The position numbers were made by a program, and so were the translations under genes. 64,000 bases of DNA, taken from Escherichia phage PP01. Positions 40,100 to 40,601 of the stretch are shown here, one piece after another. Location of the stretch: sequence record NC_054930.1, one strand, 5' to 3'. The notes under the pieces were generated by a model. It was not told where the DNA came from. It ran no database searches and saw only the letters and a program-made list of their open reading frames with translations. Each line of letters opens with the position of its first letter. Position 1 is the first letter of the stretch.

Positions 40100-40160
40100 G
40101 GTAATAGTATCACTACCTCATCAGTGTGTAAACAACTTTGTGAAATTATTTTAAATCGTC
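40100..40160 (-). promoter_or_regulatory. T4-type early promoter (repeat copy B, 5' of the ipI-locus gene)
   Basis: Plus strand ggtaatagtatcactacctcatcagtgtgtaaacaactttgtgaaattattttaaatc. Confidence 0.6.
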
Positions 40161-40601
40161 TGCCCAATCAAGCTTAAGAGGTTCTTTGTATTCACGATCT
40201 AATACGACCGGAATTTGTACATCACCGCTAAATGATAAGGGCCCAACATTATAAGACAATGTTATATGCGGTGTGTAATCGTCAAAATCATGTGTAGCAC
40301 CTAGCGCCCGCGCATACATGTGTCGACAGCGCAGATATTCAGAATCTAGCACAAGTACAAGAGTCGATCCATCTTGTGTTTTCCATACTTCTAAATGTCC
40401 AGAAGAAGCTACTTCAAAACTTCCGCTTGATGGAACATACGGAACATTTACTCTTGAATAACATATGGTCGAATGAATTTTTTCTCTAGGAACTGGATTA
40501 GGAACACGTAAAGAGCGCTGGAGTTCTTCCAGCGCATCAAGTGTTAATTCTGAAAACTTAGCTGCTACATAAAGACCCGTTGAAAAGTCTTTAAATTCCA
40601 T
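40146..40601 (-). CDS. 57B: Gene 57B protein (Acb1-like anti-CBASS cyclic-oligonucleotide phosphodiesterase)
   Basis: 151 aa immediately upstream of 57A on the same strand; paired His-containing motifs ([14 protein letters not shown]) consistent with a 2H-phosphoesterase-like fold. Confidence 0.7.

Follow-up and report, generated by a model that had tools for sequence, protein, structure and literature searches.

Gene Order and Related Genomes

An open reading frame of 151 codons, extending from an ATG to a TAA stop codon at 40146-40148, lies at positions 40146..40601 on the minus strand of the 64,000-nt stretch of DNA analyzed here (the window); the first-pass annotation had its coordinates exactly right. 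Judged from its translated sequence, this is almost certainly acb1 (gene 57B) of a T4-like phage (Tequatrovirus), the product of which would be a small metal-independent 2H phosphoesterase.

The two genes that precede it in the direction of transcription lie on the same strand. Gene 57A, specifying the tail-fiber assembly chaperone, is an 80-codon ORF at 40601..40843 (minus strand; Pfam PF17594 GP57, E=2.6e-50), and gene 1, specifying dNMP kinase, is found at 40843..41568 (minus strand; Pfam PF21448 DNMK, E=1e-106). The DNMK match begins at residue 15 of a 254-aa ORF, and the true start of gene 1 is probably the ATG giving MKLIFLSG..., which yields a gene of 726 nt as in T4, rather than the listed TTG at 41607. 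Gene 57B thus sits directly after gene 1 and 57A, and ahead of the internal-protein and tRNA region. It had been described earlier as lying immediately upstream of 57A, which is correct in plus-strand coordinates only; the two genes are transcribed from the minus strand, which makes 57B the downstream member of the pair.

The gene order 4-2-3-1-57A-57B-IP-trna.4, followed by tRNA genes (38190-38761), is the same as in phages T4 and RB32. At the DNA level, the 2.2 kb surrounding acb1 show 97-98% identity to Shigella phage ESh17, T6 and RB32, and a 24-kb stretch is approximately 96-97% identical to vB_EcoM_112 and others. The PCR primers published for acb1 of BASEL phage Bas35 (PMC13577387) appear, by eye, to match the window at 40933-40956 and at about 39690-39711, and the primer on the trna.4 side carries the C variant of the window, which is absent from T4 and RB32. 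This by-eye match suggests that the window is close to the Bas35 phage group.

Two small plus-strand ORFs, at 40318-40461 and 40376-40489, were considered as possible genes and rejected as antisense shadows within the strongly conserved acb1 coding sequence.

Identity of the acb1 Gene Product

The first-pass annotation regarded the ORF as T4 57B from its position and size, and alignment with T4 Acb1 was among the checks that it proposed. When this alignment was run, all 151 residues proved identical (100%) to residues 2-152 of T4 gp57B/Acb1 (NP_049750.1, from the T4 reference record NC_000866). The T4 product is annotated as 152 rather than 151 amino acids owing to one extra N-terminal Met, and the claim of equal size is therefore nearly, though not strictly, correct; the orthology itself is borne out by the identity, by the T4-like synteny and by the match to the Pfam family PF23474 (Anti-CBASS protein Acb1), which covers profile positions 1-144 of 144 (E=2.6e-60) with a score of 202.7 bits against a gathering cut-off of 27 bits. 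The coding sequence differs from that of T4 at 11 nucleotides, every one of these changes being synonymous and none non-synonymous, which points to purifying selection on an unchanged protein.

The catalytic HxT motifs of the 151-aa protein are H43-S-T45 and H112-I-T114, corresponding to H44/T46 and H113/T115 of T4. The five published ligand contacts are likewise all present, as Y11, W73, F106, E140 and W146 (T4 Y12, W74, F107, E141 and W147), and the C-terminus is identical to that of T4, including the C-terminal lid (T4 residues 145-152). Comparison with the sequence of the crystallized Acb1 of Erwinia phage FBB1 (PDB 7T26/7T27) gave a match (E=4.1e-62) that spans residues 8-148 and is interrupted by just one gap, of one residue, and from this strong, near gap-free match we infer that the protein adopts the 2H phosphoesterase fold. 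A single-sequence AlphaFold2 model had a mean pLDDT of 37.9, too low for the model to be of use. A search of NCBIfam with Acb1, Ip5 and the trna.4 product matched no family.

In a tblastn search the protein matched 1469 phage records; identity was 99% or higher in 497 of these, and similarity dropped to about 31-47% in phages of Aeromonas, Acinetobacter, Vibrio and Salicola. One of the matched records, that of phage 236Ecol005PP, names the gene "anti-CBASS protein Acb1."

Other databases call it something else. The family matched in PHROGs (phrog_755) carries the label "RNA ligase," as do the 57B entries in the RefSeq records of T4, RB32 and others, from which one might conclude that the product is a 2′-5′ RNA ligase, or a LigT-like RNA repair or cyclic phosphodiesterase enzyme acting on RNA ends. 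Acb1 and LigT do share the 2H phosphoesterase fold class (PMC9117128), and residues 80-122 bear a faint likeness to Pfam 2_5_RNA_ligase2 (PF13563; E=0.11). This likeness, which was the only additional match when Pfam was searched for alternative domains at E<=10, amounts to 13 bits and falls far below the cut-off of 27, compared with 202.7 bits for the Acb1 model. The label itself reflects automatic transfer from superfamily-level similarity, and no RNA ligase activity of T4 57B is reported in the Acb1 literature that we examined; the identical T4 protein cleaves cyclic oligonucleotide signals experimentally, and is needed only on hosts with CBASS. We consider an RNA-end enzyme very unlikely, and recognition of the product as Acb1 corrects a name that is widespread in database records.

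The 57A Junction and the Start Codon

In T4 the junction between the two genes reads ...GAA TGA TGG AA..., where TGA is the 57A stop codon and 57B is annotated as starting at ATGATG. In the window it reads ...GAA TAA TGG AA...; the first ATG of T4 is absent and the second is retained. The 57A stop codon here is TAA, which removes the first ATG and leaves Acb1 one residue short of the annotated T4 protein. The stop codon of 57A and the ATG of acb1 share one nucleotide (TAATG), an overlap that suggests co-transcription of the two genes and translational coupling.

Loss of the annotated T4 start codon (TGATG to TAATG) might be taken to mean that acb1 is an inactive remnant, either non-functional or unexpressed for want of this ATG. 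There is some precedent, in that Acb1 can be a liability to the phage. The depletion of cyclic nucleotides is sensed by Panoptes systems of types I and II (PMC13577387), and these guard systems are triggered by the enzyme. Some Tevenvirinae carry a disrupted acb1; the gene of Bas43 contains a nonsense mutation, and escapers of type II Panoptes obtained from Bas35 have inactivated theirs (PMC13577387). Moreover, the nearby trna.3 is frameshifted in the window (see below), an instance here of accessory-gene decay or of an error in the sequence. The acb1 reading frame, however, is complete and encodes no amino-acid change relative to the active T4 enzyme, the residue lost is merely a duplicated N-terminal Met, and the second ATG is kept. 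The annotations of RB32 and phage 236Ecol005PP give the gene this same 456-nt form, and the approximately 497 phage records noted above encode a protein at least 99% identical to that of the window. The 151-aa TAATG form is a common variant rather than a lesion, and it is extremely unlikely that acb1 is defective here.

A further alternative is that the enzyme is unchanged and that the 151-aa TAATG form, together with the Ip5 cassette described below, alters the timing or level of its expression relative to T4 acb1. We hold this to be improbable. If true, it would shift the balance between evasion of CBASS and the triggering of Panoptes-type guards that sense cyclic-nucleotide depletion.

Expression and the Downstream PeSL Cassette

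Expression of acb1 in T4 is mainly middle/late, and the window gene is probably expressed along with 57A in the same period. A TATAAATA box, the consensus of T4 late promoters, occurs inside gene 1 at 41199-41206 (minus strand), upstream of 57A and 57B, from where it might direct the late expression of both genes. Across the window this motif is present 11 times against an expected 10.85, which is the level of chance; we therefore make no claim from the box and mention it as a lead only.

Immediately after the acb1 stop codon there begins a cassette of the PeSL ("promoter-early stem-loop") type (40094..40145, minus strand), composed of the conserved box TTTCACAAAGTTGTTTACA, TTTACA, a 17-nt spacer, TACTAT and a hairpin. 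A promoter scan recognized here an early-promoter-like element, with TTTACA at 40132-40127 and TACTAT at 40109-40104 separated by N17 and accompanied by the TG of an extended -10. This arrangement fits the consensus for phage PST/T4 PeSLs, TTTACW-N17-TAYWAT (PMC4122927). The hairpin, of 13 bp, spans 40123-40094 and overlaps the promoter-like element (-18.7 kcal/mol, z=-4.1). In T4-type phages such cassettes have been proposed to mediate the shuffling of variable genes (PMC4122927, PMC2839356).

The 19-mer TTTCACAAAGTTGTTTACA belongs to a 69-nt repeat family. Exact copies are located at 40127-40145, at 39796-39814 (after the Ip5 gene) and at 8484-8502, and two degenerate copies are found elsewhere, a total of five in the window where chance alone predicts 0.07. 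Cassettes of this type, with or without the hairpin, are seen on the minus strand at 40094-40145, 39762-39814 and 36329-36397, with putative further ones at 8484-8502 and 21850-21868; they directly follow stop codons, and the first two flank the Ip5 gene.

The next gene (39815..40072, minus strand) specifies the 85-aa internal head protein Ip5 (phrog_3499, E=3.7e-50), and occupies the position of T4 ipI. Its product is 96% identical to Ip5 of RB32, a protein annotated as "replaces ipI." The N-terminus, MKTYKEFATETIITE, resembles a capsid-targeting leader. The internal-protein locus consists of this single gene in the window, where T4 has ipI, and of Ip5, Ip9 and Ip7 in the same place in RB32; the expectation in the first-pass annotation that variable cargo genes adjoin acb1 was thus well founded. 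Alignment with T4 DNA is near-perfect through acb1 and the PeSL cassette, is lost within the Ip5 gene, and picks up again at the PeSL after it. The conserved 4-2-3-1-57A-57B block thus ends with acb1, which adjoins a hyperplastic locus, and the PeSL cassette marks off the variable IP locus.

The cassette probably both ends the 57A-57B transcript, at the hairpin just downstream of acb1, and starts transcription of Ip5. A generic terminator scan found none after acb1; as the hairpin there is without a T-run, termination at this point rests on the PeSL literature.

Other Features of the Window

The homologue of T4 trna.3, a gene for a 136-aa protein of unknown function (phrog_1411), is found at 39149-39558 on the minus strand and has suffered a 1-nt deletion between 39529 and 39528. 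The deletion follows codon 10, where T4 TATGCCGGGGAT is represented in the window by TATGCT-GGGAT, and results in a frameshift and many stop codons. A 201-nt query from this region aligns to 202-203 nt in all of the best-matching phage records, the deletion being present in none of those listed. Either trna.3 is a pseudogene peculiar to this strain, or the frameshift is a sequencing error.

A 157-aa ORF (36537-37010, minus strand; phrog_2280, unknown function) begins with MKSYTQFLNEA, an internal-protein-like N-terminus, and its product may be another injected internal protein. It is flanked by direct repeats of 36 nt (36497-36532 and 37054-37089) that are 92% identical and contain a GC-rich hairpin. 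In position and length the ORF corresponds to RB32ORF133c, which is described as "flanked by 34 bp imperfect direct repeat," while T4 has rnaC/rnaD at this site. The tRNA cluster (37403-38761, minus strand) comprises eight genes, for Gln, Leu, Gly, Pro, Ser, Thr, Met/Ile-CAU and Arg. As in T4, the GIY-YIG homing endonuclease gene segB (37483-38148) splits the cluster.

Function and Mechanism of Acb1

The T4 57B product (NP_049750.1) was discovered by activity-guided fractionation as an enzyme that degrades 3′3′-cGAMP (Hobbs et al. 2022, PMC9117128). It also cleaves cUA and cAAA and does not cleave cGG; neither cA4 nor 3′2′-cGAMP is cleaved by Acb1 (PMC9117128). Structures of the FBB1 protein revealed a compact 2H phosphoesterase fold, in which the HxT/HxT tetrad of H44, T46, H113 and T115 carries out metal-independent acid-base catalysis 3′ of adenosine via a cyclic phosphate intermediate (PMC9117128). 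The bases are stacked by Y12, W74, F107 and W147, adenine N6 is read by E141, and a C-terminal lid made up of residues 145-152 closes over the ligand (PMC9117128). Cleavage activity arises about 15 min into T4 infection, and a T4 acb1 deletion mutant grows normally in the absence of CBASS and exhibits a more than 300-fold defect on CBASS hosts (PMC9117128). In a transposon screen, acb1 was conditionally important on a CBASS-expressing host (bioRxiv 10.1101/2025.11.20.689424).

By analogy, the window enzyme would bind the 3′-5′-linked cyclic di- and trinucleotides that the CD-NTases of the host synthesize (3′3′-cGAMP, cUA, cAAA and cAAG), and its two HxT motifs, acting as acid-base catalysts, would cut these 3′ of adenosine through a 2′,3′-cyclic phosphate intermediate, leaving the signal linearized. 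With the signal linearized, CBASS effectors would stay inactive and the infected cell would not be killed before the phage cycle is completed. From the identity of the protein to the tested T4 enzyme, we infer that it cleaves cyclic nucleotides and allows evasion of CBASS.

An intact acb1 predicts that the phage will plate on hosts whose CBASS signals with adenosine-containing 3′-5′ cyclic di- or trinucleotides, and that it will be sensitive to Panoptes guards that detect the loss of such nucleotides (PMC13577387). Both predictions are of use in annotating the phage, in predicting its host range and in choosing phages for therapy. Since the T4 reference protein has the same sequence, the locus adds no new biology; acb1 is here a known and characterized gene, ordinary in a T4-like phage, and not a discovery.

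Comparison with Known Systems

The closest known system is T4 gp57B/Acb1, with which the window shares all 151 residues, the catalytic and ligand-binding residues, the flanking 57A and gene 1, and a near-identical downstream PeSL. It differs from T4 in lacking the extra N-terminal Met, in its 11 synonymous substitutions, and in having Ip5 rather than ipI downstream. Acb1 of phage FBB1, whose structure has been determined as the apo form (7T26) and with 3′3′-cGAMP (7T27), belongs to the same family, is collinear over residues 8-148, and possesses both HxT motifs as well as Y12, E141 and W147; it contains many substitutions, among which, as read from the alignment, W74 is replaced by F and F107 by Y. 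A more distant family member is the 165-aa "Anti-CBASS protein Acb1" of PDB 9Q2G, which aligns with residues 7-118 and has both H-x-T motifs, but is longer and only very weakly similar (E=0.0044, 20 bits). The LigT or 2′-5′ RNA ligase branch (PF13563) has in common the fold class and the catalytic logic of two HxT/S motifs (PMC9117128), whereas its sequence similarity is at the level of noise (E=0.11) and it acts on RNA ends, not on the cyclic oligonucleotides of immune signaling.
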